This document shows, piece after piece, positions 14,050 through 45,875 of a DNA stretch of 64,000 nucleotides. Source of the DNA: Sarea resinae (Eukaryota); contig JAPEUD010000057.1 of NCBI GenBank assembly GCA_026026165.1, positions 62,001 to 126,000 on the forward strand. The letters are read 5' to 3'. The position numbers and the translations under genes were made by a program. Under the pieces are notes generated by a model, which worked only from the letters and a program-made list of their open reading frames with translations, did not search any database and was not told where the DNA came from. Numbering within the stretch: the first letter of the stretch is position 1; every line of letters begins with the position of its first letter.

Positions 14050-15450
14050 ATCGCGCCGACTGCTTACTATCTCTCGTAGTAAGTAAAGTAAAGTAAAGTA
14101 AAGTAAAGTAAAGAATCTAAGAATTGTCTGCTGTATGACATGTATGTGTATATGGAGACGTTTGATCTGTGACTCTGTCTATATCCCAATAGGTGGAGAT
14201 GTGTTTGATTTTACTGTGTAGCAGTAGGCTAAGAAAGAGGGGAGAAGAGAGGGAGGAGAGAGAAGAGAAGAGAGAAAAGAAGAGAGGGTAGAGGATAACT
14301 AGTTGTATGTAGGGTTTACTTGCTTAGATTCAATAGTGAATAGTGTGATAGTGTGCCAGTGTGACAGTACCTAGAGTGAGTAAGAGGGAAGAGAAATATT
14401 AAAGAGTAAAGAGAGACAAGAGAGAGAGAAAAAGGGGAGAAAGAGAGGATAAGATAGCGCTCCATCTCGCTATAGGACGTTAGAGAGGAGAGAGATAGAT
14501 AGATAGCTAAGATCTTACCTTTGCTCTCATTGAGCGAGCGTTAACTGAAGAAAAGGAGAGGGAGAATAAGAAGGACAAGGAGAAGAGGAAGGATAATGAG
14601 AATAAGAAGATGAAGATAAAAACAACCTAAAGGAGAGGGGGAGAGGGGAAAGCGAGTGGATGTAAATCCCTCTTTCTATGTCTGATCCTGTTTCTCTTTC
14701 TGTTTCTCTTTACTTTTGCTTCTATCCTACGTTTCTAGATCCAAAGGGAGGTCTACTCGATATATATTCTATATACTATCTTCTAAATTTTTTTTTTCTC
14801 GTGAAAAAAGGGACAGAAAAATCTCCGAGGGGGCAGCCGGAGGGGGGAGCGTTTGCTTAGACTGTGCTAGGCTAGGCGTTTAGAGAGAGAGAGAGTTACC
14901 TAGAGAGATAGATAGATAGATAAATAAATGTTCCTTTTAGGGTTTTGTACATGTCTGGCTAATTAACTATCAGGTAGACCGGAGGCGTGCAAGGTATCTA
15001 CTAGCTACTAGCTAGCTGAAACGGTATACTACATAGTGAATTAGAGCAGCATAGCTCGAGAAAAGAAAAGAGAGGAAGAGTAGGAGGTCGGCGGAAGTAG
15101 AAAAGGGGGGTGGAGGAGGGGTTTAGAGGCAGGAAACAGGATTGTTAGGGGAGAAGGGGGAAGACGGTTACTTGGTCGACGGTGCCGTACTAGAAGGTGC
15201 CCTACCAGAAGGGCTTGCACACCTATGATAGTTTCATGTTTCATGTGCCATGGTTTCTGTGATCATTGATTTCAGCTCTGTCCTCTGTTCTCTGTTCTCT
15301 GTTCTGTCATCTATTTCCGGGTTTAGCTTTCTCATTTCTCATTTCTGATTTCTGATGTTCCCTCTATCCAGCCCCGGAGCCCCTTTCCGCTTTCAGCTTT
15401 ACGGCCTCTCAGCCGCAGTGCACCTCTAACTCCGACGTACCCTCGTCCAT
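14050..15450. repeat. Low-complexity microsatellite mosaic, including (AAGTA)6 at 14081-14110 and GA/AGAT tracts
   Basis: Read directly; lies between convergent NRPS-like and UBC1 3' ends. Confidence 0.85.
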
Positions 15451-15632
15451 CCATCCATCCGTCCGCTGTGCCGTGCTATGCTGCGCCTTTCTCTTCCAGC
15501 AGCCCTACATGTCGTCAAGAAATAAAAAATATCAATATCGTGCCTCGTATCATATCCGCTGTTTGGTCGTGTCATTTCAGGCCGTTTCATTGTGTTGTCT
15601 ACGGCTCTCGCTCTTCTCCTCTAAAGCAAAGA

Positions 15633-23450: not shown

Positions 23451-24519
23451 ATCTATGCGATAGATATGATACAAATCACGTCGCCCCCTCTTCCCTCACT
23501 TAGTCGCTCTCACTTTTGGATCCTAATCGAGCTCACTCCTCACTCACTGCCTCAAGACGCTACGCCATGTCTGACCTGAACCCTGACAGACCGCCTGCTT
23601 TCACCCCTTTGGTCTTGCAGAGTAGTCTGCAGCCCAGCCGCAGCTCCAGCTTGGTCCGGTTCAGTTCGGTCCGGGACCCCTATAATCGATTATAATCGAG
23701 TCCGGGCGGCGTATGCTCGGATTGGTACTAGTGGGCAGACTTAGGGGTAGTGTCTTCTGCTGCGGATAGCAGGCGCGCGTGCGTGCGTGAATTTCGGATC
23801 TTGGGGGGATGAACGGATGGTCGTTGACAGGGAAGCTGGGAGACGGGGAGGGGAGGGTTGAAGGAGTCGCTCGTTCGCTTTTTTGATGGTTGTGTCTGTC
23901 TGTGGCGTCTGCGTCTGGCGTGTGGCGTACGGTGTGGTGATGTTAGGAAATTGAGGTGCGGCGCACGGCGCGACGGCGCGCGGAAGGGTGGCTTTGGTGG
24001 ATGGAGCGAGGCAGTGATGGCGTGGTCGAGATGAGATACGTGTGGTGGCGAGAGGCGGATAGAGAGGATGGTATGAGATGCACAGACGCGGAAGCGCGGA
24101 GTCGTTTTGCTGTTGCCGAGGGTAGCCAATGAATGATTGATAGATATAGGTTTAAACGCATGTGGGCCATATGGCATGCGATATTATCGTGCGTGCGATG
24201 CGTGTGGTGCATCGAAAAATAGTCATTATTCTTGACCGGCGGGCAGTGAATCCGCAGCCCGGGGGCCTGTCCCACTTATGGAAGCTGCAGGTAAAGCGCT
24301 GATGCTGCTGCCGAATGCGTAGTAGAGGCTTTTGTTGGATCACCGACTCTGCTAGACTTTGATTTGCTTTGCTGGTTGCTACCGCCCCAGTCAGCAACGA
24401 TGAGACGGCTTCAGTCAAAGACTCAAAGAGAAGGGTGCCCACAAAGTCATCGCCCACGATCTCCGGAAATAACGTGCAAACCTCCGCACTATAGACGTCA
24501 CTCAGGGAATGTCTCCTAA

Positions 24520-25796
24520 TCATTTCACCAATGCAGGCCCAAATAGATCTCCCGCTTTCTTGCTCTCAATCTCCAACTTTCGCTTCTTGGCTGCCCTCTC
24601 CTCGTCGGCCCCATCACCACCACCGCGCTTGACGGCCGCGTTCAAACCCACTAGATCGATCTTCTCTGGATTGCGACACGCGTACAGCTTCTTATCTATG
24701 CGCTTCAATTCCTTCAGTTCCTCGGTGCTGGGCCGAGTGGTCGTGACGCTGGTGGACAAGAGAGTGGTGCAGGACCGTAGGACGGTCATTATCTTTGTCT
24801 TTTTCCCTGATTCGGTGGAAGCGAATTTGGTGTCGAGGTAGAAGCGCGTCAAGGCCTCATCGGCGAGCAGAAGGGAGGCGAGGAAGATTTGCGATGGTGT
24901 GTAGAGGAAATATGCATCTGTGAGCAGAGCGGAGGTTTTGAGGGTCTGCTTGGCCGCCTCGTAGGCGCTACGTATGCGCCCTTGAAGTGCCGTTCCATTT
25001 CCCACACCCCCAGCCAACGTCCTCTCCATCGCTTCCTTCAGCTGTGGCCCCGTGGAAGCGTCGTGGGGCAGAGATACATAGGTCCCTTTCGCCAACGCGA
25101 GTAGCTCCATCAGACCTCCTTCTAGAGCTCGGAGCGGATGTCGCACGTCAAAGGTGAAGCGTAGACCTTGCGTGACGAGGAATTCGGGCGCGACGACTTC
25201 TTCGGGGGTTGTTTTGGGCAATTTGGACGCAAAAGACGTCAAGGGCGTGTAATGGTTTTCGGTCTTTGTGGCCAGGAAGAGGATCGATGGCATGAGGGTT
25301 TTGGGGTGGTAAGTCATCGGTGAATTCGAGAGGTAGAAACGGTGGAGGTAGGTGAGCGCTGTGGCCTGGTGGTGGCCATAGTTTATTGTCAGTAAATCAT
25401 CATGGCAGTGCGCACAACAGCCTCGTTTACCTTGACGTTGGTGGGAAATCCGCAGAAATCCGCCAGTTCCATGGCCTTGACGCAATAGAAGCCCACCAGC
25501 TTCTGCTCTTCCTCAACACTGAGACATTCGATATCTTTGTCTTTGTCGGTGGCCTGCGGTGTCGCTGAGCCTGATACCGACCTGGAGCCATTGCTTGTGC
25601 CCTTCTCCCCACTGCTAATGCTGCTGGTCCCATTACTCTCAGCCGCTGCACGAGCTTCTCGAGCCCGCTTGATGGCTGCTTTCACGCGCGCGCAGGCGAG
25701 GCTGTTGGTCGTCTTGCGGAGCGAGGAGAGCGATTCAGGCGTAAAGGACCAGAGACGGTATTGGGTCGAGGTGCGGTAGGCAGCGTCTTCGGTCAT
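24520..25796 (-). CDS. CCL1: Cyclin H (TFIIH kinase cyclin)
   Basis: YRTSTQYRLWSFT, PTNVK|ATALTYLHRFYLSNSPMTYHPK (intron 25366-25430), FLATKTEN, APEF...QGLRFTFDVRHP, LTDAYFLYTPSQI, KKLYACRNP. Confidence 0.93.
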
Positions 25797-28689
25797 CTTG
25801 CAATCAATGGGATGGACCATGGAAACGAAAAGAGGTGGTATGAGAGGTCGAGGTTGAAGGTCGAGATGTTGGTAATGAATGAAGGTTGATAGTGAGCTTT
25901 TGGGAGTGTTTGACGTGTTTGACTTGTTTGATGGATTGTTTGACGAGAACGACCTCGGGAGTTTGGGAGCTGTTACATTAATACATCATCGCCAATGAAC
26001 TCCATCCTGCGATAATCATTCACTTCCTCAACATTCTCGAACAATCATGTCTGCTGTCTTTGATAAGTTTATGACTCTCTACGATCAGCATTCTGTCTCG
26101 TTCTAGTTCTTTCTGTGCTGGTGAATCGGCTGTTTGTGTTTGCCTTCTCTTTTATCCCTAATGCGCTTTCTGTTCCCATGTCACCGACTCATTCATTTCC
26201 TCTTCACGAGCATCTTTAACTTCCTATTGGAGATTTTCGGCCAACCAATATAAACCACCCTTCTGATCTTTCTGCTTGCAACCTTCTTTCTTATTTGAAT
26301 ACACAATATCTAGACAGCAAGCTTCTTTTATAATATACTAATCAGATATCTCCTACTGCATGACCGGGACTAAAAGCTTCAGGTTCTCTAAAGACGCCAG
26401 CCACAACTCACCTGCGCGGAAAGCCAGCGTCTCTCTGAAGATGCTAGACTTAGCCACCCATATAGAGGCTCACAATCGATCGTTATTACCAGCAAAGCAG
26501 GCCAAGCGAAAGTGTTTGGCCAGGAGAGTCAAGAAATTCTTCGCTCTCGTTCATACGAACACCTACGCCTATTACTCAGGAGGATGCGACAATCAGATAC
26601 AATGAAAATTTACATCGTATCAAGCACTGTCAGATATATAAGTCGCAAATTTCCAGATCAAGCAATGACTCCAGGACCACGGCTACTCACACAAGCCTAA
26701 AACTCACCACCTATCGCGGAAATCCCGACGTGGTTACTAGAAGACGTCATCGTGACTCTGAAGATACCAAACATATCCGTGATCGGCCACAGGCAAAGCA
26801 CGGCGTATACCACATCTCGTCGACCGAGCCCCGATATATATGCATGTGTCACTGGTTGCCACCTCACTGGACTGATCTAGGTTTTTGCACCAACGTGGAA
26901 CGATCCATGCTAACCCCATTTCGCAACATAAACAGGGCGCGGGACTGCGTCCGGGCTCAAGAGGCCGTCTCACGGGCAGTCAGGAGCATCTGGATCGGGG
27001 GACCAGGCATGACTTTTGAAGAGGCGAATTGGCAATGAGGGAGGCCGAGAGGATGTTGAATCATTGACAGTGACTATCAATCTATACTCTTGCTGTCTCA
27101 TCCACCGACAATGTTATTCCAAGGATCCATGAAAAATCACTTCCTCTCTGCTAAGTAGAGTTCTAGGACAAAAGACTAGCACGACTTTCTGACAACAGAT
27201 TAATTGTACTTGAGCGCAGAAATTAAGACGGGCCTGTGAGTTTTATCATGGTCAGTCAGAGAGCTTCTGATTCCAGGAGGCCGTTCCCTTTCCTCCGGTT
27301 GCATCGCCGTACATCAAACCATCGTCTACAAGAAGGTGCAGACAGACAGCCTTTGGCATACCTCTGAGCAACAAAGTTTGCGAATTAATAGAACCACCAT
27401 TCAGCCTCATCCAGTGCAAAGAAGTACCGGCCATGGAGACCCGACCCTTTCTCGTTGTCGGTCTTGTAGCCGTATGGCTTGAAGTCAGCGATGATCATTT
27501 CGATACCGGTAGCTTCATAGCGAATGCCGGACGGGGAGAGGAAATTGCGTTAAGCAATGACTTAACGGAAGACGTCCAAGTATTCAAGGTGCCTTCCCAC
27601 CGCGCGCTTGATCAGTTGGTGGAGATACTCTATCCAGAAGCAGAATACATCTCATATTCAATAGGTTTGGGCAAATTTAGCGTACACGGGTTTGATGACT
27701 TACCCAAGATATTTCAGACTAATAATCGGTATTACAGACGATATCTAGTCTCAACTTGATTGCCGCTCATCAACTTTTGTATATGAACGGAGATGATATC
27801 TTGAAGAGTCAAGAACAGGAAGACGGACAACATCTGCCTGATAGTATATGACTGCATAACATAGCACCTAGCAGACAACTTAGTTGACCGGCTGACAAAA
27901 TGTTCCGTTTAGTACTGAATCCGACCGGAACAGAATGTCCGGCGCTCAATCCATTCAATATTGTCTCAGCGAGAGCGAGCATTCCTAGCTTCTAGGAATT
28001 ACTTCTGATCCCCGGAATCTCTTCGTTGAAACCGCCTGAAAGACCGTAGCGTGGGCGCGAGGCCTTCCGTAGTGGGCCTTAGGCCATAGGATATCTCTCA
28101 TAGGCAAAGGAAAGGATGATAGTAGGGCTGCATCTTGCCGAAAACACTACTACTACTTTATTAGCAGAGAAGATCTCTTCAAAAACATCACGACAATGAC
28201 CGGCGCTAATGATGTTCGTCTGACAGGAGAATGTAGATGGCGGCAATAAGATTATCTAGTAACTGTTAAAGAGCAGGGCATTATACTAATCAACAACATA
28301 GCAAGGGCAACAGCAAATGGCGGAAGACGGCGGACCGTGCGTTTGAGAAATGCTAGGAGCTTGTGAATATGAGAGAAGAGTTTACGGAGAGTAAGAAGAT
28401 CTGAGAAGCGAATGCCCCAGTACCATCGTCAGAGAACAATGACTTATAGCCACGTTTTCCGAAATGAATTACGCTGGCCATGTCAGAGAGGATAAATTGT
28501 ATCTTCCGGGCAGCTCAAGCGCTGCCCCTAGAACGGACATGAGCGACCTTGTCCTCTTTATGGGCCTTCGACTATACGCGCATTATAAAGTATCGATAAC
28601 ATCATCACAGACCAAAATCTTCGCTCCTAGGATGAACCAAATCCCGGAGACCAAGCACTACCACTATCAAGTATCGGGACTGTTCGATG

Positions 28690-29790
28690 ATTGACGATTA
28701 TCAAAGGCTATGTTCATTGGAAGATTGATTGCATTAACGTTGGGCGTTTGATTGTTGCTGTCCAGCGACATTTCGGCAACTCTGGAGAGGTTCGGGGGCC
28801 CGCTGCAATAGGGAAGAGCACTTATGAGGGCTATAGAGCTCTATCCGCATACTTGCCTTACAACAAGTGCAGGCAGGGGTGCCCATTTCATTTGCAGGAG
28901 AGGGCTCGGATTATACTAGAACCTCGTCCGATATCTAACAGAAGCCCATCGGGGGTCTAATATCATCACCCTCGTAAGGGGATGCGAAGGGGCGAGTTGC
29001 TCCGTGATTATCTGGGCCACACTAGGATACTGGTGCCAAGGCCTCAGCGTGGAGTTTGCCTTGGAGCTGCGAAACGCTGCCAATCTTCGACAACATGGAT
29101 TTTGGCATCATGTCGCTGCCAGGTGGGGTGAGTACCTAGTCTACGGCTGCCGCTGGCTAGGTATTCTGTTCAATGTCTACGGGATCTTGGAGATGGAGGC
29201 ATTGCTGCAGAACCAACATCATGGAAGCAAGAAGATATTCAAGCTATTTCCATCAAAGAAGCCCGGTATACCTTCCATAGATAGACTGAGATGTCTGAGA
29301 GATATCAGGCATCGCAGGTACCTCCACCCGGTCTCAAGCTCACGACTCGGCTGTTTCTGCTCGGCGTCGAGCCCGCCATCGCTCTTCTCTCGCGATCTTG
29401 CGGTGTACCCCATCGACCGTAATCAATTTGACAACGAGCACACGGAGAACGTGTTATGCGTGCTGGTGCTGCTCACTCGCCTCATGGCCACCAAGGTCGT
29501 GGTCCCTGCGGACGTGCTGATCCTGACGCCATACCACGACCAAGTCCTCTTATACTGAGCTGCTATCGCCAACCTCGAACTCAAAGAGCCTAGGGTCGAC
29601 TGATCTGATTGCATTGTCCGTAGGATCGATGGCTCCCAAGGCCTTGAACATGCGGTCTGCTTTCTGGACTTGGTCGTGACTAATTACATAGGCCTTATGA
29701 ACGAAATTTTGAAACTAGACGTCGGATTTTCTCGTGCTCGTTACAGTTCCTAAATCATCGGCATGATAAGACTGGATAAATCGGCTAAAG
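28690..29790 (+). pseudogene. Decayed Upf1/DNA2/NAM7-like SF1B helicase, copy A (mainly C-terminal AAA_12 part)
   Basis: One frame gives LLQNQHH..IFKLFPS, VLILTPYHDQ (29520), IDGSQGLE (29625), VCFLDLV, IGLMNE..LDVGFSRAR (29721) with stops at 29556, 29601, 29751; possible Walker A GPAAIGKST at 28796-28822 in another frame. Confidence 0.8.
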
Positions 29791-30912
29791 ACGTTGATAG
29801 CCGTCCACTGATAGATCTACCACCCGCCTACTAACGCGATTAACAGCTAGTTCTACTACTTAGTAAAATCAGAGCAAAGACCTACTTCTAGTACGCGTTA
29901 GAGGGAAGCAAACGCTAATTAACACGAAGCCGACTTGTGACCACAATATCAGATGTGGTGGTGCTCTCCTTTGTGGCAAGTGCAAAGTGCAGTGGAAGAG
30001 CCGACTACAGACGCGGAGGCCAGAACAGTATGTAAGCCATCTTCCCACCATCAATTTCTCAAATGGAGGTTTCACTAACGACGCCGTTTGAGCTGCGAGT
30101 GTCTCAATTCCTTGCTTTGGCTGCGAGTACTGAAGAGACAGCGAGGAACGATCGAGCAAGGTCTCGCCGATCATACTAGCAAGCCAATCATTGGAACTTC
30201 AACTAGACATATTATGTTCTTGTATTCTATTCTAACCGCAGCCGCTCATTTTGGTGGTCTGTACATCTTCACCTACAGGAACGGCGTCGAAAAGCTTGCT
30301 CTACACCCAGGCTCGGGATTGGCAAGCAAGAAGTGCTCTCTGAGCGACTGAGTCCCTTGCATACCACTAAAAAGCAGCCTCTTTATTACGGACGGCAAAG
30401 TGGTAAAGGCCAAACAGCCAGAGGGCTCTAAGAACAGAGGTCGTTTAGAAGCTGATATTGATCTAGGGACAGATGTGATCTGTCTGAAATACAATACGTT
30501 GTCGAACAGACTAATATCCTAGCAGCGAGTGCTCCCTTTTAGAGGTTTAATGATCGACATATATTCTATAAAATAAACATGCTATAAGCCAATAGGCTCT
30601 GAGCTCCTACCCTCTATTACCTACACACCTAATGCCTAAATTACTCGAACTAAAGGGATTTTAGTGTGTTACAATTGCCGCCTAGCGCAGTGAATGCACT
30701 GGTGATTGTAAACAGCCCTACTGCTAGACCCTCCTCTACTAATCCTCTACTTGCAAACAGGATCGCTCTAATTCTATCACGGTTCGCTATCATCAAATCC
30801 GTGGAACCTAAAAAAGTATTCTGGGATACACATATTGTTGTCTATAGCATCTCGTTCTGGAATGCAGAGAACTTGCCTAATGATGACAGGCACAGAATCT
30901 TGGCTCGAGGTA

Positions 30913-30943
30913 AATTAGAGCCTGCCTGAATTAGAGCCTGCCT
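30913..30943 (+). repeat. Tandem duplication of AATTAGAGCCTGCCT (16-bp period)
   Basis: Copies at 30913-30927 and 30929-30943. Confidence 0.9.
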
Positions 30944-33900
30944 TAAAAGAAAAGCAGTCTCTCGAAAGCTGACATCAGCGTAAACAAGTCGAACGTTCAA
31001 AGGCAACGATGAGTCTCGAATCCCTGAGCCTAGGGGCTTCCGAGGCTGTCACTGCGGCTCTTCTTCGAGATAGCTGCAACAGTGAATAATACATTCAATG
31101 TGCCTCTTTACACTATTCGTCGTTCTTACCCATTCACCTTTCCGTGACTCAGATATTCTCTTTGACGGCTCTGGATTCTATGTTGGGCAGCTGATGATAG
31201 CAGTGTAAACGCTTCTATAGTCTATGGAGATATCCGTACATGGTGAGTCAACGAAATCGACAGATCGTTGCAAAGCGAGCCTGACGATCTAACGCGAAAC
31301 GGATTACACGAGTGAGTTGTTCCGAACATAGAAGAAAATAGGACAGCAATTATGCCAGCAGACAGCCAGCAGTTCGTGACAACGAAAACTCTCAGGATGC
31401 GGGAGCAGAAGGAAGAGAAGCGATTGCTTGTCTCACAACACTGTCTTCATATGGTGTGACCAGATGCATGCTCCGGAGATTGGAAGTACCATGACATTCA
31501 TATCTGCATGTCGAGCTGGGCCATCTCGCTCGGTGCCTCGCTGGCGGGGTACCGGTCTCGCGGGTAGGCAGCCTGCTTAAGGCCGTATAGCAGCAAGGGC
31601 TGGTAGGTCGACAGCCTAGGAAGTAAATCTTACTTTACACTGCTAGCACTTACCTCTAATTGTGTCTGCATGACAGGTTCCGGCATCTTCACTTACAACA
31701 AGCTTTGGGCCTGATCATATGATGCATCTGCTTCGACAGACTGGCCACCTGGGCAGATTTCTCTCCAACCAAGGACACGCCGTTTCCTTCAATCTCTAAG
31801 TTATCGAAGCCCTCTGACTTTACCATGACAACCATGAGGGGACAGTCTAGCAATGGAGGTAATCCTATTCCTAGATAACCTGCAAGACTTGCTACTAGAG
31901 TTGTTAGGAATAGAATCCGATCAAATCGAATGCTAAAGGTTTCGATACAGTAATAAAAGCTTGGCAAGGTCGCCTGAAGAGAATACCGAAATAGATGACG
32001 GTATGACGATCCCGACGGATCGAGGACTTGTCTCTCGAGATATGTCCCGAGAATCAAAACAAGAAAGCTCGAGTTCGAGCTCATCTCTACCACAGAACGC
32101 AAACAGAGCCCCTCTATCGGCGCTTTGTGGTCTAGAAAGAAGGGAGTGCAACCTAATACAATTCACTGTACGCTGACGTACAGGAGTGTTCCAAGACAGC
32201 TTCTTAAAAAAAGGAAACTTTTCATACGAGAAAAACATCTATACACATACTAAAACATGGCTAGAAAGGAACGAGAGCATCTGACCTCCAAATCGAGAGG
32301 GGGAGATGTGAGAAATGCACGCTGAACTGCTAGCAGCCTTTTCTCTCTCTGGTGTCTGCTCATGCTCGTTTTCAAGTAGCGAGATCGGAAGTAAATTCTG
32401 AGAAAATTTTACATTGAGAACGGCATTTTTTGTGTCCTGGCACATGCGGCCTTCTGGTTGTGTCTACACGGCTGTTCATGGAAGAATAGTGCCAGGGTTT
32501 CCTGCAATTTGCGATCTATCAGATCTGGAACCTCCTAGATGAAACAGCCAACCATCTCGCCAAAAAGAACGTGCGAGAACAGAACTTTTCCAAGCAAGGG
32601 ATCCGTCACTTCTTTCTCATTTTTTTCTGCCCACGAATACGTTCGCTAAGTGCAGTCACAAACACCGCTCGAGAAGGACAAAACGAAGTGGATGGAGTTT
32701 CCAAGGCCTTTTCCCTCGAGATGAAGAAGAGAACTATAACAATGTCTGTACTCATCAACGACCTGGATATACACACTCAGCTCGGCACCTTTTAGACAAC
32801 AGGTGGCCAATCTCAAAAGGTATCCGGCTGCTGTCACTGTCTATGCGATATGGGCAGTTCCGACGATGTACAAGCAACTGTTCAGCACCTTAAAGGCATA
32901 AATTGAACCCTCTAATTATAGCTTCCAACGCCTGAAGCAAGATGGGGAGGTCGTTGCCACTCCTACACGTCGTCGTGCCGCCAATGTCACTAGTATTTCG
33001 CCGATTGGAATCAACCCCAACACCGGTGTTTCTCTGTCGCCTGGTCTGTCCTTGGACGGGAAGTGTCACCTTTAAGCAGTTTGCGACGCAAACTGAATCT
33101 TGTGGTGGAGTGAAAGTACTTAAGACAGATCAAGACAGAGCACAGCCCTGGTATGAAAATGCTTTGCGCCTACCTACATGGAGATGATGACCGCGAACAT
33201 CTGAAAAAGAGACCAAGCTTCCGAGATCATCGAGTGAGCTTGCTGCCCTGTCTGCCGACCTAGCTGAGTCTGACCGTCTGCCGTGCCTCCGTCGAGTTTT
33301 TTTATGGGAGAAAATACATCAAGCACATCTCTACATTAGCATCGAATGGAGCTAAAAATCAAGTGACTAAATATACCTGCGAGCAGAACGAGATCGTTCG
33401 GCATTTCGATGCCAATGCCGTCCGTGGCGATATTTTCGCGCTGCAGGACAGCAAGGTCAAGCGCCTCTAGCTCTCTCGCCTAAAGGCTATCTAGAATAAC
33501 TTTATAAAGCCGGCAGATGACTCAACATGCCTAGAGCGCGAGACCCGCAGCTTCGTTCCATGCTATCCCTGACGCAACGCCAACGCTTCTAGACCGACTG
33601 GCACTAGGGAATCAATTGGTCTAGATGACGATGGCTACCTAAAGTGTGGCTGCTATTACAATGTATGTTTCACGACCTATTTGCAAGGAGTATACACGTC
33701 TGAATCTATATATAACTCAGCTTATACGCGATTACAGAACAGTCTTCCTGAATAACTCTTATAATCTAGGGACTATGAGAGATATAAGCTCTTGTTCTTA
33801 AGATAATAAATATACCTAGCATCTGGGCTTGTCTAAGCACTAGAGAGATAGCTCTATTTGCGTCCACTATCTTTACAACGCTGTGCTAATCTACTGCCTT

Positions 33901-34595
33901 TTATAGAGGGGAAAATAGTCTCACTTTTTCTTAAGCTACTTGCCACCACGGGCAGATAGTTGACAACTCCATTGGAACAACAGGAACAACGATTGGACTA
34001 GGAGAGCAGTTCTCGTCGACCCGAATGCGCCACCTCCGCAACCTAGCTTGACGATCCCGTCATTTGAGCGCATATCCTGTCACTCCAGCGTGCGCCCCTG
34101 TTTAAGCTAAGAGTGGGCTAGGTAAGGCGATATACTACTAGATTATAAAGCTGTAGTACTAAGCCCTTATACTCTCGGTCAGCCTAACACGCCTAGAATA
34201 GCCTAGAGTGGATTCTAATAGGAAACCAAATCTGCTGTTATGTTCACTCTACAGCTTACCGTAGATCCTGTATTCATACCGTTACGGACAACGGCCTTTA
34301 GCAATCAAGCACTTTACCACATACATCATCTGCAATTCGCAGCATATGGTATCGACGGCTGACAGCTAGACTGAACTCACTAGATATGATATCAAGCGGA
34401 ATATAAACGCCTTCAAAAGACAGCAGACAGAGACAGACAATAGAAGGAAGCGCAACGCAGCTCCGAACAGCGATCGCTGAGATTAGAGCTTGACTTGTCG
34501 ACTAGCTCTATAAGATCTAGCATCCCTTCTTATGAGCGCAATCTGGGAGTGTGGCTATTGCGAAGGATTTTGATATTGACGTCATATGCATTCAC

Positions 34596-34871
34596 AACTA
34601 ACCAAAGAATAAATTCACCCCGTCGCGTTCGCTTCTTCCAGCATCGACAACCACTTCAAGAGATGGCTTCTCATTTCCCAACGCCCCCCAACACGGCATA
34701 CTCACGCCGATCGATGAATAGTTCGAACAGCTCTACTTTATCAAATGGAGAATCGCATCATTATGAGCCTTTCAGGCAGGGCGCACCAGGACCTTTGCCT
34801 TGGCTTCTATTGATCAACCGTGCCATCAAAAAGGAAGACCAAATTGAACTAACCAAAGAATAAATTCACCC
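34596..34871 (+). repeat. Perfect 25-bp direct repeat AACTAACCAAAGAATAAATTCACCC
   Basis: Copies at 34596-34620 and 34847-34871. Confidence 0.92.
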
Positions 34872-35854
34872 GAATATTCTCTCGGTGAATGAGCTAGATG
34901 AATCAGAGGCCGTTGATGCTATCCCTGTCTTTCGACTAGGAGCAAAGGCAACTTTGATAGCAGATTCTATACGATGTCTGTGTACCCTGTTGCTAATACT
35001 GCTAGTACAGTATAAACCAAGTATTCCGTCGAGTTTCAATTTGACGAAACCGAAACAGCAACAGGCTCTTGAGGCAAGTGGAGTACCGAAGTTCGACGGG
35101 CTTTGCAACACTCCTGTCAACGGTCATGGCCAGCTCGATCGGACATTTTTCCCCTTGCGGGTCCTCCCTGAGCCTCTTCTTCGGGTACTGAGCTTCAAGC
35201 ACAGAGGCTCAGGCTCTGCCCAATATGTAGGCTTGCAAAGTGGCTGGAATAGTATGATAATCTAGAAAGGGAATCCAATGAGACGAGCTACGTCTCTTCG
35301 ACGCCTACAAGCTTTTACTTCTCCCCTATAGTAGACTATGTTAGAGAGTACTAACTCGCTATGTACGGGATCTCAGACACTGAAATAGCTAATCCTCAAG
35401 ATTCGATGCTTACACTTAGGTTCCGCTCAAGATCAACCGAGGTAAGAAAGTTAATACCAGGTCATCTTGGTCCTGGCAAAAGGTTTTCTTTCTCGGCGAA
35501 GCGCATAAATGACCTGACGGATCCCAGCCGCCAGACGAGGGGCGATACATTTGCAACTGGCTACAGTGCCAGGAAGCCTTCGTTCGTTTGAATAAATTGA
35601 AGGTTGTTGAATCCTTGAATAACGCTTTAAGAACAGAAACAACAGAGGCTGATAGACACCAGACACACATAGCAGAGCACCTAGCCTATCACAGCACCAA
35701 GTCGTGCGCATGGGGTGTCTGCAGGTATGAATATTCTGGCCGTAGTAAGCGGGCGATAGAGTTCCAGAGACACGTGAAGTAATCTGCAATGCGGCAACAC
35801 CTGCGGCCGCTACGGCCAATACAGGTCAGAATCCTGCCCTAGGGTCCCTGGCCA

Positions 35855-38800
35855 GTGGCGGATGAGCCATTTGAAGATGCCGAATTCTTGCAATGGTGGA
35901 CGCAGGAGCAGCGCAGGTGGGTCGTTATCGACCGTTACAGCGAGGACTTGCCCGCTCAAGGCGGGTCGCAGGCTCGGATTAAAAACCAGGTCGTCCTGGA
36001 AAGATACCTCATGCCATCGGGACAACCGGCAACCGGCGGTTTTCAAACCTGGAACGTTGCCATTAGGGCAACATGCCTGGAAACGAGGAAGCGACCCCAG
36101 GTGGGGTGGAGGGCTTCGCTGAGCCAAAACGGGATAACAATCTTTGAGCAAGAGAAAAAGGGCTCGAAGCAAAGACTGCGGCAGCGCAAGGCGGAAGCGC
36201 GTCAAGCGGGAATGGTGGCGGCCACAGCGGTCGGCCTTGACGCGGCCACAGCGGTAGCAGCAGGGGCAGCACCAGCAGCGGCGAGGATTTCGAGTGGAGG
36301 AACAGAGGCCACGGCCGCCGAAGCCGCCGCAGTGGTGATACAGGCAGCAACAGAAGCAATGAAAAGGCTTGAGGGTGGCAGGTCGAGAGGAATCCAGAGT
36401 TGGGAATTCAGAAAACACTTACTGACAGTAGAAGCAGCCCCTGACGGGACAGGTCGGAATGAACACGTATCTGATGAAAACATATCTACGCCCAAGAAGT
36501 GAGAGCTTTTAACAAGAAGCAAGAATGTGATACCATCATGGCTACAAGGCTTTCCCTCAAGGAGTGGAACCCAGAACAGATCGAAGCTATCAAAGGAAGC
36601 TAGAAACTTTGACACAGATTGTAACTGATGGCTGGGCCTAGCAGAACAGGGGAAACATCTGTTATTATTGCAATTGCAGACATGTTCGCGAGATGTGGAC
36701 TACTTGTGATTATCACAACTCCTAGTCATGCTGTCGCGGACGCAATTGCCCTAGGCTTTTTTAAGAAACTTTTAGAGGCCAGTCATATCGGTCTGACCAA
36801 TATAGCTATTAGCAATCCAGACCTTTTAAAGCCGACTTATCACTTGGTATCGACAGGAAGCTGAAGCAAATCTCTCTATATTAATAAGAGATTAACAATA
36901 GAAAGAAGCTTACTTAGTGTTATAAGCTAAGTGGATAGCAAGAACAGATAAAACATAGCTCACTCTAATAATGATATCTAGCTAGAGATTTGCTTGATAT
37001 AATAGATATGCTTTAACTTTAGAAAAGTCGCTGTTCTTATAAATTCAGGCTAAGGGGTTTCCTACAGTTGATTTTCGCCAGCAAAATTCAATGCATCCTA
37101 TTATAGCACTCCCGGCTTTCTCTAACCAACGATCGCGAGCAGGACTAGAGCCTCCTAGCGAGGAAGAGGAGCGGCCATGCAGAGACTCCCAGCAAGGCCT
37201 CGAGTATTGCCGGCCCTGTCCCCAGAACAACAGCGCCAGTCCCGCCCTGCCGCGTTTGCGATCAACGCAAACAGCAAATTAAGATAACAATTTCGCAACG
37301 GTGGCACGCTCCTACGCCTCCTACAGTAACAGCATCTGTTGACACCATCAGAGGACTTAGTCTTATGGGAACAAAGACGCGGCAGCTTCACAATTTCTCA
37401 GGAGGCGCCGTGGGAGCCGGATTAGCACCACCGCTGTTAGTCGATTACGTCCAAGAGCGAGAGATGGCACGAGAGACCGCTACAGACGCATTAGCCCTAG
37501 CCAGGAAAGTAATGATACCTTCTCACGACCTAAGGCACTACGAGCCAGATTAAAGCGCGCTTTAATCTGTCTTCGGAAAAAGACAAGTATATCTAACTTA
37601 TTTTGCGGACATGAAGGACAGCGATTGCAAAGTTGATAAAACCAGATCCAGGTCCAAAAACGCAAATATCCACTTACTAACAGCTAGCAGGACAAGAATA
37701 GAATAGATATAATTACAGAGACTGAAATAGATGACGCAACTGCTCAAGCTCTCAAAGAATGCAATTAGATATTCCCCGTCTAGAAGGTAATAACCGCGAC
37801 AGCAGAAGCAATTTCAACAGCAGCAAAGGAAGCGGTTCTCGCAACAGCAGAGATATGATAGAAGTCTGGTTGCTATATGCAACGAAGTCTCTCAAAACGT
37901 TCGAAGAGCCCTGGCGCCCGATTATTTGAGCGTCTGCCTCCCTCATGTGCGGGTCAAATACCTATCAGCATCTCTAAAGATAAATTATATGAGATGCAAA
38001 GCTCATTCCTATTATCGCCAATAATATTGAAAATATTAAAGATAAATACGCATTAGTACATCGCACAACTCGCACGAAACGAACAACTCACAACTTGCAC
38101 GACAGCTAGAATCGAGGTGTACACTAGCCTTTCTGCGGTTAGAGACAGAGCAAACAACGTCCGAGTGAATTCTTATGGCCACGACCTCAGTAGTTCTGTT
38201 GTGAAAAGCATCACTAAACGATGAATAGGAAAAGCTGGTCTAGTTCTGCAGGAGGGGCGCCTTTATTCTGAAGGAGCTTGAGGAATATAAGAAATATGGC
38301 CTTCTGATTAGGCTTGTGGCTTCTAAGGATGTCAAGTTCAAAGGGCTGGTTTGCGGATATTTCTGCACGTAAGTGCTGTATATTCTAAATATACACCTTG
38401 TTAGTATTGTCTACTCTAAGCTAACTATGTTAGTCGCCGACAATCTAGGTCCCCCGCTTGGAGCGTCCGAGGAGGGTATTGTAACCGCCTAACGGTCGTG
38501 GTGGTAACAATAATTGCGGCGGTAAAAACCGCGGCAGAGGCGGAGCTGTTTTGCCTGCCCTGCCTAATGCACAGCCCTCTAGAAAAACAACACAAGCTCC
38601 TTGTCTCTATTATACGCATCCGACTAGATATCCGCCTTCGAATAGCATCACTCGGCTAGTAAGAGGTCCTCTTAGAAGAGCTTTATCGACATAATCAGCA
38701 TATAGAGAAGGGGATATCAATTTCTAATGGTTCGCTGTCTATATCTCTTCTTCCTTCTGCTTCTGATCTTCTGTACATTTTCTGCGTCCTGCTTCTTCAC

Positions 38801-39590
38801 CTTGTTCGTCTCTAATTCCCTAACACTTAACACATTATCCAGCAGCTAAGACAGAGACGAATAGGTGTACTACGATAATAGAGGGGTCTAGCTGACTGTC
38901 ACACACAATTCTCTCAAATTCACAGGCTGTATACCCTATACAGAGACAATGCTAGCATATTTACAGTGAATGTCAGACTACAAGGAGGAAGAGGTGACGT
39001 AACTCTACCTATTTGATTCATTCCCTCACTTTGCTTTCAGGCAACTCAAGGCATTAGCACCGAAGAAACAATCGTTGACACTCCCCTCCTTATACTCTAA
39101 TCTACCCTGCCAGCTGGTCTAGGCCAAGGTAAGTCGTCGATTTGCCTATCACTTTCAGACTGGCACTCGCTCGCTCGCGTTGATTCGAAGATGATCTTGA
39201 ATAGTTTTGTCTCTTTGATATTATCTGGAAACAATCTTTCTTTGACAACTACAAGCAAGCAAGAGAGTTCTACTGTTTGACTAAAAATTTGACGAAGGAG
39301 CTCTACCTGGCTGCTATAATTGTTTGTTCAACAACCACCGGGGCGAATAATTCATACCTGTTAGATACATTTGATCCCTTTGCGGCGTTTCTAGACGAGT
39401 CGGCCCACGCCCACGACGATCAGGCCCTAACGCTTTGTCTGGGTTCTGAGAATCCGATTGCTTGTATTTGCTGGCGACCCGCGACAACTTCCACCTTTTC
39501 TTTTCAACGAAGGTGCCTGTCATGGCAATTTCGAGGGCGCGAGATCTATCCACGAACGCCTTGAGACACGAGGGTTCGTTTGCGATGAGA
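35855..39590 (+). pseudogene. Decayed Upf1/DNA2/NAM7-like SF1B helicase, copy B (N-terminal AAA_11 part)
   Basis: Q-motif WNPEQIEAI (36565) in frame, through three stops, with degenerate Walker A MAGPSRTGET (36628) and motif Ia TTPSHAVADAI; IIVCST..FLDESAH Walker B (39394); frameshifted GDPRQLPP (39473) and SIHERL (39545). Confidence 0.8.
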
Positions 39591-42500
39591 TTTATCCTTG
39601 GCGATCCGGAAACTAACATTGCCCCCAATAGTCTCCACCGAGTCCCGGACGGCGTCTTTATCCAGCTCGCGGCGAGTATCAAGAGTCATCTCCTGGTCAT
39701 GTTAGAGTTTGCCGAGCAGATCGGTCGGATCACGGCCAAGCTATCCCAGGGTACATTAAAGAACATCGAGTCTCTGCCGATTGAGCAAGCCAATGCTCTC
39801 AAGATGGTCGATATCTCGCTCCTGTCTCTTGTGACGCCAAGGGCGGCTCGGCATGCAACACCGCAACGGAAGTCGGCCTCCCCCAACCCATTATCCTCTA
39901 CAGCGAGCCTCCTAGGGAAAGACGAATGGGTAATTTTCGAGGTTCCGCGCCGAGGCAAGCGGGAGTCAGCCAAACAGAATCTGGTCACAGTCGTGATACA
40001 ATCAAGAAAACCATGGAAGCGGAGATAGTGAGTCTCCTCGAGGATGAACAGCTCGACGACGTTGCGACGATTCTGACTCCCTCACCACCATCTCGGCTGG
40101 CGCAGCCAGTATCATGTCCGTGAGGCACTGGAAGAATCGCAGCATTATTCACGGAAGAGATAAGATGCGGCGCGGGCATACACAGTCGCGCCTACAGAAG
40201 AGAACTCTTGGCGCTTTCAGCTCTATTGACTCTCCACAGCCTGTCTCCAGTCTGAAAACAAAGCAGACTCTCATGCCTATTCTTACTGTCGCAGACGTAG
40301 CGACAAGACTTTGGCCTTGTTGTTCTCCCTGAGAGAGAGCCGGACTTGTCGCTGTTCGCGAGCTTAAAGCAAATTAGATCAAGATCAAGATACTTGAAGA
40401 TTGGGGCAGCTTTTAAGACGCGACCAGCTTTTGGTCTAGAGCAACGAGCACGCTAGGCCATCGACTTGGCGTTTGACCTGCTAGTAGCGGTTGGAAGACT
40501 AGCTCATCCCAGAATATACATGGCCGCGGATCCAACGACGAACCTTGTGGCAATTTGGCAGCAAAGGTGCAAAGACATGCGCAAAAAGGAATTTCAGGCA
40601 AGTCCGCTCAAGTCCTTGGTTGAAGGCGTCAAGCAATGCATCGCCTTCAATGGCGGCAAGCAGAAGTGGGAAGATTCCCGCGACATAAAATGCGGCAAAC
40701 TGAGAACCACGTATTCGGTATTAGCTAAGGAGCTTAATTGCTCTAGTAGGACCTATTATACACATCTATTGAGTCCTAACAAAGACTTGAGAATGTTAAG
40801 CTACTCGGTATCCCAGTCTTACACGGAGCACACACCAGCACACAAGATATATGTGCAAAGGCTTCTCCTATAACAAAGGATGTTGTGTTTACTCTTATAA
40901 CAAGTGCGGCCTTAAGATCTATTAGAATTAAGTTCCTAACAAGGAAAACACTTGTTTTGCCAGCGCCTATGAGAGCGTTTCAATACCTATAAGCTATGCT
41001 AAGCATTCTTAGAACAAGAGAAGAGACTAGTTTATCTAATAAAAGGTGTACCCTTCCTCTCCTCTCTTTTCTCGGATTTGCAGCACTATACTACGTCTCT
41101 CGCATTCTATCCTCACGTCCGCAACCTCACCTCTCATCTTTCTGCCTCATATTCTCTCCTGGAACGCCTCCAGTACGAGGCAACCCAAATACGCGACCTG
41201 ACATAGCAAGTTGACGCTAGAACAGAAGACATCGACGTTCTAAAGGAAGCCTGAACTATTCCCTCACATCACTTTCAACGGTTAAAGCAGGATGGCGAGG
41301 CATTAGATACCCCTCAGCGTGTCCGCGCCCCTGACTTTGCCGGAGTGTCGCCAATCGGTATCATTTTCACGGCCAGGTTTTCCCTGGCGACAGGCCTCTC
41401 TGCTGAGGTGATGGCTATCACAAAGGGCGTTGAAGACCCTTTACAGAGATTGAGAGGAAGATCAAAGTGCTTGTCCGCGTCATCCGACGTCAGTCGAAGC
41501 TTCAGGAGACCGTGGCTATAGACAACAAAAGTACCAGCAAATTGAAAATCGAAAGATAACCGGCTTCCCCGAGAAAGATGACAAATAAGTCTAGCACAGG
41601 TGAGAAGGTCGAAGAAATATGTGACTCTAAGTAAAGATGTCGAGCAGGATTTGCTCACGTCATATTGCCTCTCGTAGCAGAGTCTTACTAGTAAGTAGAG
41701 CCAGCTTCGAAGATAGAGAGGGCAAGACAGCTCTCAGAAGGGAAGTATGAAGATTATTATAAGGGGCGGGAAAGAAGTGGCCACTGGGGAGCAAAAACAA
41801 CCTGACCCGAATCGCGATACTGGCCAACAGAGAGGAAAATAGGCGCTGTGGTGTGGGCAGTCAAGAGAGTCGTGACACAAGTTGAGCCGGCTCAGAAGTC
41901 GATCACTGTTACGGACCACAAAGACTCCTCTACCGAAGTACACGTAAGACTTTATAGGTAGGAGAGTATGTTCCTCAGCAGGCGCGCTAGGCCATACTCG
42001 ATGATAGATGCGCGCGAGAGAATTAAGAAGACAAGATAGGGGAAGTAATTAATACTGAGAACCAAATAGATAGAACACACAGTCAGTGTTTAAGGCATTT
42101 AATCGACGATAACAATCGCATGCACATAACCAGACGCCGACATACTCGCAAGGTAGATCTAGGAAGATATTCCTTAGCCACTATAATATATACAAGCATA
42201 ACCTCTATCCTCTTAGTACTGAGAGTCAGAGCTAAGTGTCTCTACTATGACTAAAACAGTATTGTTTGAAGAGGGCTACATGGTCTTATGAAAGGGTATA
42301 AGCTTAGCTTAGCTTTAACAATTTATAGAAATAACTGGTATAAGACAGTCGTCAAAGGGGCTAACTGCCTAAGTCTCTAGAGGAGTCGATTAGTCGCCAC
42401 GGGACATTATATGGCTAGTCTATTATAGCTATACCTTAACTATTGTAACTTGGAATTAAGAAAGAGCTTTGCAAGGAAAACCTGTTCTATATTAGAGGAG

Positions 42501-43457
42501 AAAACCTTCGCAGTATAGATTCGATGTACCCTTTACAGATATTGTATCAAACAAGTGCAAAGAGAGGGTGACCGTTCATTCTTTCCGACATGAGAGACAT
42601 AGAATCACATGGTGGAAAACAACACCATGTGGGATTGGCACAGCGGGTCGACCAAATCAGGGGCAGACAGATTCTCATACAGCTTTTTCCGGTGCCACTC
42701 TCTGGCGAGGACCCCAGAATGGCCGCAGGTAGATAGTGGATAGGCAATTTCGGAAAGATATAGAGCGGGGGAGCAGAGAAAGTAAGGAGCTAAGTGAGAG
42801 ACGTTGTATTGGAAAGGGGCTGAACATGCTAGCAAAATCAAAACCATGGAACGAACGTTACTCGGAGGTAGGAACAGCAACAATGCCATCACAGTCCTTT
42901 CTTAACACGCCGTCAATAAAGATCGACTAGGTAAAGAATGATTCGGTGGACGTGTTAAGCTAAATTCACATTCATAACGGAAAGAGGTTGAACGCAGACT
43001 ACAAGAGTGCCACACAGAGCTCAATAGAACATCTTCTAACACACACAGATCAGTAAACAGATCATATCGTTCTATTGAACAGTGAAACAGGACCAAGTTA
43101 ATGGTCAAGGTCGCCGTGTTATGACCGAAAAGGGAAAGCAAACAGCTACTTCACCAAGATATCAATGAGTATAACGTCACTTCAGGATTGTGTTAACACA
43201 GACTGTAATATATATAGAGGCTGGACCTCGCACTCCTCTTTTGTTTCTTCTTTCTCCTCTTTTTTCTTCTTCATCGTCTTGGACTTGAGAAGCTTCGTTC
43301 CAGATTTTGCAAACCTTCATAAAGTCCTTTTTTCAAGATCTTAGACACCGTCTGCAACTGGTCGACCTCATTCTCCTCTTTCGTCTTCGACACATAGTGT
43401 CTACTTACTTTCTCCCTTTACCTTGTTCGTTGTTACCGAGGTCTCACCCGAGTCAAA

Positions 43458-45875
43458 ATGGGTGAACAGATCATAAAGAAGGTCATCAATAAGGCCGCAA
43501 AAGCCAAGGCCATGGTCAAGCTGCTCGCAAGCTCTACGAAACGCAAGGTAATAAGCCTTCTCCGAAAATTCATGGACACATACTGATGGACCGCAGACTA
43601 GTCTCTCCCGAGTGTTTCGAACCGCCACTATCATCAAATCATACAGCCGCCGCCAGCCAGCACCACAAGGCCGGACCAATGACCTACCACCAGAGCAAGA
43701 GACAGGTGATGGGGCACCCAGAGCTTCAAGACAAGCGACACCTCAGTCCGAGGACCATGCTTGGTGGATCGGAAACGCTGCCACCCCTGTTGATGGAAAC
43801 AACCGTAATCAAGTCGGGGAAGGTGAAGTGAGTGTCACCCCGTACAATGATTACTTTGGTACAGAAGCTTATTATTGATCTAGGTGATTGCTGACGACAA
43901 CACAACTGACGAGATTGCATCGCTATACGACAACGTTGTCTCCTTGATCGAGCAGGTAGATGATTCACCAGTGAATCAAAATGCCACAACGCCTGTCAAC
44001 CGACGACTACGCCCTCGGTCCCAGAGCCCAACCAAGCGCGGCAGAGACGTTGAGCAAGCCGCAGGGTCTGGATCAAGCCATAAACCCCAGACCAGCCAAG
44101 GAGAGGCGCCTATCGAACAACGATGGACTTCTGGAACTGAGACAGTTGTCGTATCCGGAGAGTCGAGTGAACAAGGCCAAACCCCTGATAAGGGTAAGGC
44201 AGTTGCTTCAGCATCCGAAGAGGAAGAATCTATGCCCTTCGCAGTCCACGAATCGATCTTAGCGGACCTCCACGACGAACACAATGAAGTAGTCCTCGGG
44301 CTACAAGAAACAATCGACTCCCTTCAAGGCAAGATGAGGTTGTTGCAGAAGAAGGTCAAAGACAATGTCATGACGACAAGAGCCCACAAAGAGGCTATTC
44401 AGTCAAAGGAAGAAGCAATCGAAGCAACTATGAAGCAAGTAGAGGGCTTGACTCGGGCACTTTGTTCATCGGAGGAGTTGTATTCTGAAAAGATCAACAC
44501 CCTTGAGGCCGCCGAGAAGGAAACACAAAACCAAGTCACGCAGCTGGTCAAGGATAGACAAGAGTTGATGGACATGGTTGACGCACAGTCAGCCTTACTC
44601 AACACACTGCACGCCCGGAACCAGAACAAGGACGAGACTCTGGCAGGGATCAAACTGGCCAATAAGGCTTACGCAGATACCATTGATGTTCTTCGCATCG
44701 AGAAGAACGAGATTGCAAACTTGTTCCAGGACCAATTTGAAAACACAAAGGCTCTCCAGAAGCAATTGCAACAGACCGTGGAGACAAATCAATGGAAGGA
44801 CGGATTGGTGAACCAGTTCAACGAGCAGTGCGAAGGGGCAAATAAGAAGGCAAAGGATGCGGAGAAGGTGACTGTCTACGCCCAGACAGAGAACCAACGC
44901 CTTCTCAAGAAGAACAACGACTTGGTCGACGAGTTGGCAAAAGAGGAGAAATTCAACATAGACAAGCAAGTCGAAATCACCAGCTTAAATTGCAAGCTCC
45001 TGGCAACAACAGCAGAGCGCGATCTTCTCCGGTCCGGCCGTCACTGCTTGCGCGAAAACATGGCCGACATCATCGAGCTCTGGGCAGATGTCGACCGCGA
45101 CGATGAAATGCGTGTCAAATTCACCGAGAGCACGCAGGAATTCTTCCGCGACAATAAGCTGCTCACCAGCCACATTATCCGCCTACAAACCGACATCGAG
45201 GACCTCAAGTCCGAAGTCGAAACGCTCGAGGCCGCAAATGCAAAACAGCAGCCTGCCATCGACAGCGCCGTGGCCAAACACGGCGAGCTCCTAGCCGCGC
45301 ACAAGAAAGTCGAAGACGACAACGTGGCAGCGCACATGGAATTGCACGACGATAAACGCTGGATTGGCTGCTTGCAACGCGTGATAGTACAGTACGTGCC
45401 CGGCGGCATGAAGATAGCAGGGGACTACTACGACAAGCAGGTCGAGGATGGGAGAACGATGTTTTTCCGCAAAAATTTCACGTCCAGCAAGGTGGAAGAG
45501 GCGCACCGATATTACGATGAGTTGGAGCACCAGACCTGTCGGTTCGGCATGGTGTGTGATAGTCAGAACGGCGAGACCAATGGCGATGGCAAGCCCCAGA
45601 TCCAAAATGGCACCGACGGGGAGATGAAGGACGGAAACAACTCTTCTGGTTCCAGCAGTGAGGGGTACGAGGCGCTGTCTCCGGGCGCTTATCCTTTGCC
45701 TTTGGCGCCGAGGCTGAGGGAGGCTGTCATTGCTGCTCCTACTCCCGTGCCGCAAACGTTGCTCCATCAACCCATTACTCTTCCTCCACCAATTCTTCAA
45801 CGCACCATCTCATCTCCACAGTCTCCTCAAACGGCTATCCACCAAATCAACAACGAATCCCATGACCAAACTTGA
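43458..45875 (+). CDS. Unrecognised long coiled-coil protein (~770 aa)
   Basis: Phase-0 introns 43548-43596 and 43828-43883 join MGEQIIKKV.. to the 663-codon ORF; long E/K/Q/L heptad-like middle, disordered ends; pyrimidine-rich leader upstream. Confidence 0.8.

Follow-up and report, generated by a model that had tools for sequence, protein, structure and literature searches.

Upf1-like helicase remnants and a putative retroelement relic in a decayed 17-kb island of the Sarea resinae genome

What remains in a long stretch of fungal DNA that holds no intact gene, and how did it come to be there? The question is raised by an island of ca. 17 kb (positions 26350..43150) in the DNA of Sarea resinae analyzed here, a window of 64,000 nucleotides (GenBank assembly GCA_026026165.1, contig JAPEUD010000057.1, positions 62,001 to 126,000), where the island separates a cyclin gene from an open frame of 663 residues. 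The original prediction, made from the letters of the sequence, described the island as a graveyard of Upf1-like helicases with the composition left by repeat-induced point mutation (RIP). It offered four explanations: an unrecognised helicase-bearing mobile element, Starship-type cargo, a virus-derived insert, or an array of rapidly turning-over RNA-defence helicases. We find that the island contains three fragments, alike in orientation and each broken on its own, from a single Pezizomycotina family of Upf1/NAM7-like helicases and, as a domain match suggests, at least one pol relic that we take to be of the Ty3/gypsy type. With a probability of about 0.65, we consider the island to be an ordinary non-functional assembly of pseudogenes and transposable element (TE) relics that decayed without RIP. 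The main use of this result is to correct the labelling: RIP has not mutated this DNA, nor does this DNA provide evidence for a new transposon that bears a helicase.

Three broken helicase copies on one strand

As had been predicted, there is no intact gene between the cyclin gene and the 663-residue frame: none of the 125 stop-to-stop frames of at least 55 residues in the island matched a helicase or TE family in Pfam at E ≤ 0.01. A row for EcpB_C (E 0.0074) among these frames was disregarded as chance-level. PDB sequence searches with three larger open frames of the island gave no match. Long frames are nonetheless in excess of those in 200 Markov-2 shuffles, both on the plus strand (27 frames of at least 80 residues vs. 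16.6±3.5 and five of at least 150 residues vs. 0.5±0.7) and on the minus strand (23 frames of at least 80 residues vs. 14.0±3.3). Since the excess is found on both strands, it fits decayed coding sequence and does not by itself show a preference for the plus strand. The plus strand is favoured because all recognisable remnants sit there.

The remnants were detected by two procedures. In the first, hereafter called read-through, reading frames were translated with X at stops and then scanned with Pfam. In the second, a family profile hidden Markov model (HMM) was built from 15 phmmer relatives of 850-1400 residues and run over the six-frame translation of the window. Read-through of the three minus-strand frames from 26.1 to 43.9 kb retrieved no Pfam family at E ≤ 0.1. 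Long read-through queries are less sensitive than short ones: an AAA_11 match with E 0.011 in a 100-residue piece was absent at E ≤ 0.1 in a 1150-residue query, so whole-frame scans under-report weak relics. As can be seen from the matches to AAA_12, AAA_30 and AAA_11 described below, superfamily 1 (SF1) helicase motifs are indeed present on the plus strand at the places originally predicted.

Remnant A (29445-29810, plus strand) corresponds to the C-terminal half of the RecA2/AAA_12 domain and matches family-HMM positions 861-981 with 96 bits. Read-through of 29100-29900 gave AAA_12 at ~29448-29765 with E 1.7e-9 and 38 bits (cut-off 27). A HMMER scan of 1.84 billion representative proteins with the translation of 28920-29900 yielded 70 proteins with E-values of 1e-3 or lower, down to 2.3e-14 for the best. 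Their best-scoring stretches all fell within residues ~116-316 of the query, and nearly all within ~170-316. Word-index protein searches retrieved no relatives of this remnant. It is interrupted by three in-frame stops in 122 codons (at 29556, 29601 and 29751). Of 16 columns with a conservation of 80% or more in the family, it retains 12, and the median identity between the remnant and the members, 0.32, equals the median within the family.

Upstream of remnant A, family-HMM matches were at noise level (E 7.7-40; hhalign E 0.7). Since there is no significant helicase signal there, remnant A is either a 3′ fragment or a copy whose 5′ part has decayed beyond recognition. The DNA in question, 26350-29444 (plus strand), is a decayed stretch with open frames of 190 (26466-27035) and 162 (27271-27756) residues; it yielded no Pfam family on either strand and no PDB match. 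The N-terminal part of copy A may lie within it.

Remnant B (36529-37703, plus strand) lies 7 kb downstream of remnant A. It begins with motifs I and Ia at 36529-36753 (HMM 460-541), which are followed by two weak pieces at 36995-37108 (HMM 759-796) and 37566-37703 (HMM 833-865). Read-through of 36448-36900 gave AAA_30 (E 9e-4) and AAA_11 (E 0.034) at ~36.57-36.8 kb. The Walker A motif reads GPSRTGET in place of the family's GPPGTGKT, so that the lysine has been lost (K to E). There are three stops in 75 codons, and six of 14 conserved columns are retained. Outside the remnants, the family HMM gives E ≤ 1.5 for no more than about two of the window's 914 open frames; one of these is the P-loop of a proteasomal ATPase. 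Because background matches are so few, and because the weak pieces of remnant B are collinear with motif I, on the same strand and within 1.2 kb of it, they are unlikely to be due to chance.

Remnant C (39244 to ~40100, plus strand) matches HMM positions 669-732 at 39244-39435 (E 3.6e-6) and 739-780 at 39431-39613 (E 0.08). Read-through of 39199-39498 placed AAA_11 at ~39.26-39.42 kb (E 0.011). Motif II (DESAH) is in frame 1 and motif III (GDPRQLPP) in frame 2, with a frameshift between them. The two segments contain no stop and retain seven of 11 and seven of 10 conserved columns, respectively. At ~40.06 kb, a motif-IV-like ILTPSPP was read by eye from the translation alone.

Stops or the frameshift break all three remnants, and nowhere does an uninterrupted reading frame run through both RecA domains. 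Thus A, B and C are all dead copies, disabled by stops within the frame, by loss of the Walker lysine or by a frameshift. Remnants B and C both cover HMM positions ~760-780 and are therefore separate copies, and remnant A (HMM 861-981) lies 5′ of remnant B (HMM 460-541), so that C-terminal motifs precede N-terminal ones. On both counts the original prediction holds. The three remnants share no similarity at E ≤ 0.01 in a tblastn search of the window against itself, which points to old or divergent paralogues and not to a recent tandem array. Taken together, the matches confirm that A, B and C are Upf1-like SF1 helicase remnants and that more than one copy is present. The island sequences resemble the Upf1/NAM7-like SF1 helicases (UPF1, SEN1/SETX, ZNFX1, IGHMBP2) in matching AAA_12, AAA_11 and AAA_30 and differ from them in their fragmentary state, with stop codons, a frameshift and the loss of the Walker lysine.

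A putative retroelement relic and two related coding pieces

The helicase motifs had been thought to be the only recognisable domains of the island, and no reverse transcriptase (RT) sequence had been noticed. Both statements have to be amended, since a putative relic of the RNase H domain of long terminal repeat (LTR) retrotransposon-type RT (RT_RNaseH, PF17917) is present at 41791-41925 on the plus strand. It was detected in 150-residue tiles with E 8.4e-5 and in the read-through of 40000-43449 with E 0.0011. A 51-residue frame within this region (41806-41958) obtained an ESM Atlas score of 0.96 with 192 of 256 features, and 24 of its 30 matches were in RT_RNaseH clusters. A PDB search with the RNase H piece gave no match.

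The relic resembles those of Ty3/gypsy-type LTR elements and shares its strand with the other remnants; unlike in such elements, the searches of the island yielded neither LTRs nor RT palm, integrase or gag sequences. Neither RVT_1 nor rve appeared at E ≤ 1 in any of 33 tiles from 40.4-43.1 kb or 36 tiles from 32.3-35.2 kb. Other Pfam rows in these tiles were at chance level and were disregarded: THAP (0.03), Fimbrillin_C (0.044), DUF5543 (0.11), UspB (0.25) and a neurotoxin helical domain (0.11) in the first set, and VGCC_alpha2 (E 0.028) in the second. Motifs at 42.0-42.8 kb that by eye we took for integrase (strings at 42.2-42.8 kb) and for 'ARW...ADALSR' gained no support, as Pfam returned neither rve nor H2C2 and the PDB search gave an unrelated row (E 0.73). 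The assignment to the Ty3/gypsy superfamily is likewise presumptive and is based on the elements in which the domain occurs in fungi.

A short conserved coding piece, u2 (41261-41401, plus strand), precedes the RNase H relic by ~179 codons and has a paralogue, u1, at 32908-33051 on the same strand. The two are 54% identical over 48 amino acids (E 2e-9) and constitute the sole significant internal repeat of the island in the tblastn self-search. Over 47 codons, the proportion of differing sites is 0.26 for nonsynonymous positions (pN) and 0.78, a saturated value, for synonymous ones (pS). Since they differ mostly at synonymous sites, u1 and u2 must have diverged as functional sequence, either as members of a TE family or as old paralogues, and are not the product of a recent duplication of dead DNA. 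The two pieces received no family assignment and no usable Atlas match, and the best PDB row, a tautomerase-superfamily protein, was not significant (E 0.27). The piece may correspond to the end of an RT domain before the connection (RT thumb/connection), a resemblance that no tool confirmed. When the two putative retroelement zones were compared by low-stringency tblastn, there was only noise beyond the 140-nt piece.

The origin and decay of the island

In the reading that we prefer, the helicase paralogues would have arisen or landed at the island by local duplication or rearrangement. Retroelements would have inserted among them, and the whole would then have degenerated as ordinary point mutations, small indels and deletions accumulated, leaving DNA that may now just space two housekeeping genes.

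Several observations weigh against this reading. About 3.5 of the 16.8 kb have been assigned, so that ~80% of the island is without a family. The RT_RNaseH score is just below the Pfam cut-off (23.1 vs. 24.8 bits), and RT palm, integrase, gag and LTR sequences were not detected. Long read-through scans lose sensitivity, the AAA_11 match having not been re-found in them. On two occasions a helicase fragment is found upstream of a u-piece and oriented like it (A before u1, C before u2). In addition, 34 contig pieces of the probable source run align at 80-99% identity with short segments of the stretch, and multicopy parts of the island would also fit a mobile element.

The last two points bear on the explanation that the helicase is part of a mobile element not recognised so far, such as a retroelement with a captured helicase fragment, and that the island consists of several dead insertions. 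We consider this unlikely, and the look-alike contigs are the main reason for giving it any weight. In the probable source run, 57 contig pieces align to 24500-44499: 23 at 99% identity or more, two at 95-99%, 11 at 90-95% and 21 below 90%. Look-alike pieces among those listed cover 26527-26543, 31515-31598, 33435-33477, 35902-35977, 36548-36718 and 36857-36916, at depths like those of the main contigs. Parts of the island, including the motif I region of remnant B, therefore have relatives elsewhere in the genome, as expected for the multicopy family that had been predicted. Look-alikes of 80-95% identity at equal depth, that of the motif I region at 36548-36718 included, would fit a mobile element, and the helicase and pol relics are co-oriented, with the helicase fragment preceding the u-piece on both occasions. 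On the other hand, A, B and C have no mutual similarity and cover different parts of the protein, and synonymous differences between the u-pieces have reached saturation. No TE domain is present in the intact relatives, which form clusters of 1-3 members. Terminal repeats were not found: the longest direct repeats in the island are of 25-31 nt and internal, and the inverted repeats are short and imperfect. A self-comparison had been proposed for the detection of intact copies. At the protein level it yielded the u1/u2 pair; blastn returned just an exact 25-nt direct repeat (34596-34620 and 34847-34871, 251 nt apart), the sole exact repeat of the island, and no similarity between the helicase remnants. 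The island contains no poly(A) tracts of the kind that mark processed pseudogenes.

Could the remnants come from one ordinary helicase pseudogene that was scattered by insertions or rearrangement, with no array ever present? The strong matches barely overlap (861-981 in A, mainly 460-541 in B and 669-780 in C), which is what such a history would produce. It is improbable all the same, since the weak pieces of remnant B (759-796 and 833-865), collinear with its motif I, duplicate positions 739-780 of remnant C. The order along the DNA is C-terminus, N-terminus and middle, and column retention differs from one remnant to another (12/16 in A, 6/14 in B, 7/11 and 7/10 in C).

Inactivation of a repeat family by RIP, the explanation implied by the original label, fares worse, and we give it very little weight. 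According to the RIPper paper (PMC6714961), RIP is recognised in 1-kb windows moved in 500-bp steps by a product above 1.1, a substrate of 0.75 or less and a composite above 0, and a large RIP-affected region (LRAR) is one in which positive windows follow each other over more than 4 kb. In the island as a whole, TpA/ApT (product) is 0.92, (CpA+TpG)/(ApC+GpT) (substrate) is 1.19, the composite is -0.27 and GC content is 0.47; the corresponding values in the two flanks are 0.67 and 0.59, 1.17 and 1.32, -0.50 and -0.73, and 0.52 and 0.50. The raised TpA/ApT is one of two features that would favour RIP. The other is that the composite exceeds 0 in five of the 32 island windows and reaches its maximum, 0.46, at 41501-42500, over the pol relic. 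However, intergenic DNA elsewhere reaches equal values: six of the 91 windows outside the island have a composite above 0, and a raised TpA/ApT is typical of non-coding DNA in the window, with 13.5-15 kb and 21.5-23.5 kb attaining composites of 0.13-0.43. There is no positive run longer than 4 kb. The substrate index never falls below 0.90 (range 0.90-1.45) and is thus at or below 0.75 in none of the 32 windows. CpA and TpG are not depleted, the observed/expected ratios being 1.03 for CpA, 0.97 for TpG and 0.89 for TpA. Differences from paralogous contigs of the probable source run are symmetric (37 G>A and 25 C>T vs. 29 A>G and 31 T>C). RIP is therefore unsupported, because the indices lie at background, the outcome that the original prediction itself had named as speaking against it. 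The island is like the large RIP-affected regions of filamentous ascomycetes in being gene-poor and stop-rich and in holding repeat-derived sequence; it is unlike them in its substrate index (0.90-1.45 vs. ≤0.75) and in its GC content of 0.47, compared with 16% in the LRARs of Neurospora (PMC6714961).

The sole positive-composite stretches outside the island are 13501-15500 and 21501-23500, which may be small repeat relics or AT-rich intergenic DNA. At 14-15 kb, GC content is as low as 0.41; a strong GC skew is seen both there (0.40) and at 22-24 kb (0.27).

With Helitrons and Starships the island has in common that helicase sequence lies in a lineage-specific, insert-like interval. Helitrons carry a Pif1-type helicase. 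The island differs from both in that its helicase is of the Upf1 type and that there is no Rep, Pif1-type or DUF3435 match. In read-through of both strands, a procedure of reduced sensitivity for long queries, no DUF3435, Rep, Pif1 or viral-helicase row was obtained at E ≤ 0.1, in agreement with the predicted lack of Helitron Rep and DUF3435 motifs. That the island is a degraded Starship or Starship cargo has, in our estimate, a slim chance. It is lineage-specific and lies between conserved genes, and degraded Starships have been reported from lichen-forming fungi (PMC13486527). Against this, no captain-type match was found in any frame, there are no direct or inverted terminal repeats, and the word 'helicase' occurs 0 times in that paper (PMC13486527).

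A virus-derived insert is hardly credible, for although alphavirus-like RNA viruses encode SF1 helicases and the intact relatives give weak Viral_helicase1 rows, the island pieces match AAA_11 and AAA_12 and not Viral_helicase1, and the best relatives are fungal proteins of ~1000 amino acids with a Upf1-like fold. None of the four options offered at the outset gained positive support.

The intact helicase family and the genomic setting

The closest intact relatives of the remnants are Upf1/NAM7-like proteins of 900-1360 residues from Pezizomycotina. Of seven scanned with Pfam, all have AAA_12, six have AAA_11 and none has a TE domain; weak rows for Viral_helicase1 (E ~5e-6) are also obtained. 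Named relatives include a hypothetical protein of Agyrium rufum, a protein annotated as 'NAM7' in a Peltula metagenome-assembled genome and a P-loop NTPase of Phyllosticta; a longer one is a 2132-residue protein of Conglomerata obtusa. No characterised family member was encountered in these searches. Sixteen of the 18 clusters looked up are singletons, all clusters have 1-3 members, and each protein is present on one or two contigs. Such copy numbers are those of cellular genes, as opposed to a transposon that is active.

In five full-length relatives, ~400-500 N-terminal residues without a Pfam family precede AAA_11 and AAA_12. This region, ~450 residues long and without a Pfam or PDB sequence match, is a further point in which the family departs from known Upf1/NAM7-like helicases. 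One relative, P0002, was analyzed in greater depth. Among PDB sequences it matches UPF1/NAM7 (E 3e-31) and SEN1 (E 7e-26) from residue ~450 on only, with no match to its N-terminal ~450 residues. Its AlphaFold model, based on 13 aligned sequences, has a mean predicted local distance difference test (pLDDT) score of 70, with values mostly of 70-90 in the N-terminal region. The best Foldseek matches of the model are Upf1 helicase cores (E 7e-33, target-normalised template modelling (TM) score 0.78-0.83), and further structural matches are SETX/Sen1, ZNFX1, DNA2 and IGHMBP2. Word-index searches with P0002 or the family alignment gave nothing useful, and no relative was found in metagenome contigs searched with P0002.

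Whatever interest the locus retains lies in this helicase family of lichen-associated and other ascomycetes, with its N-terminal half of unassigned function and several dead copies in one place. A bolder proposal is that the family is a fast-turning-over, uncharacterised one of lichen-associated and other Pezizomycotina, whose members join a beta-rich N-terminal region, unnamed and confidently folded, to a Upf1-like core and are born and die in clusters near retroelements. The island would then be the fossil of an arms-race locus, and the helicases would be genome-defence (anti-retroelement or antiviral) RNA helicases like MOV10 or ZNFX1. We regard this as quite doubtful at present; should counts over whole genomes reveal that its members arise and are lost quickly in the vicinity of retroelements, one could then consider the family a candidate for genome defence. 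No report of clustered Upf1-like helicase pseudogenes or of fungal elements bearing such helicases was found in full-text listings, which do not show that none exists.

Homologues of the cyclin flanking the island were found at 24 metagenome loci (39-63% identity). None of these loci has a match to the helicase family HMM at E ≤ 0.01, and 15 of them hold at least 8 kb on the 5′ side of the cyclin; the helicase cluster is therefore not an old, conserved neighbour of this gene. At five loci (L008, L009, L010, L012 and L015), genes for a proteasomal ATPase and an O-methyltransferase are ~17-19 kb apart and the cyclin gene is inverted relative to the window, where the two genes (17-18.7 kb and 61.5-62.3 kb, respectively) are ~43 kb apart. 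These relatives are too distant for an empty-site comparison, and local gene order differs.

The island is flanked on both sides by ordinary genes, and the DNA of the window is of fungal type. On the left, the cyclin gene (24523-25985, minus strand) comprises two open frames, 24523-25512 and 25392-25985, and matches Cyclin_C_2 (E 1e-28). On the right, the 663-residue open frame (43884-45872, plus strand) has weak matches to ADIP (E 0.0035) and DUF3972 (E 0.0064) and probably encodes a coiled-coil protein. Other genes of the window encode a family-8 glycosyltransferase, an adenylate-forming enzyme with a carrier domain, the proteasomal ATPase, an ABC-F protein, an MBOAT protein and RNA polymerase I subunit A49. 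The frames at 8907-11289, which contain AMP-binding, AMP-binding_C_3 and a phosphopantetheine site, resemble a nonribosomal peptide synthetase (NRPS)-like adenylate-forming enzyme split by introns.

Searches of the island for tRNA genes, Rfam families and notable tandem arrays gave nothing. A GC-richer segment at 35810-36700 has Ala/Gly-rich low-complexity sequence with long frames of 219 residues on the plus strand and of 202 and 165 residues on the minus strand. Short contig pieces from two unrelated organisms (runs X2 and X3) match at 36241-36285; these runs gave short, unlike matches alone and are without comparative information. In the probable source run, X1, there are, in addition to contigs at a depth of ~340-480, others at ~42-46 that align at 30081-30357, 33453 and 36007-36107 with differences and small indels, and one low-depth contig has 430 extra letters at 30200. 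These contigs have the appearance of another related genome or haplotype, present at lower abundance in the sample.

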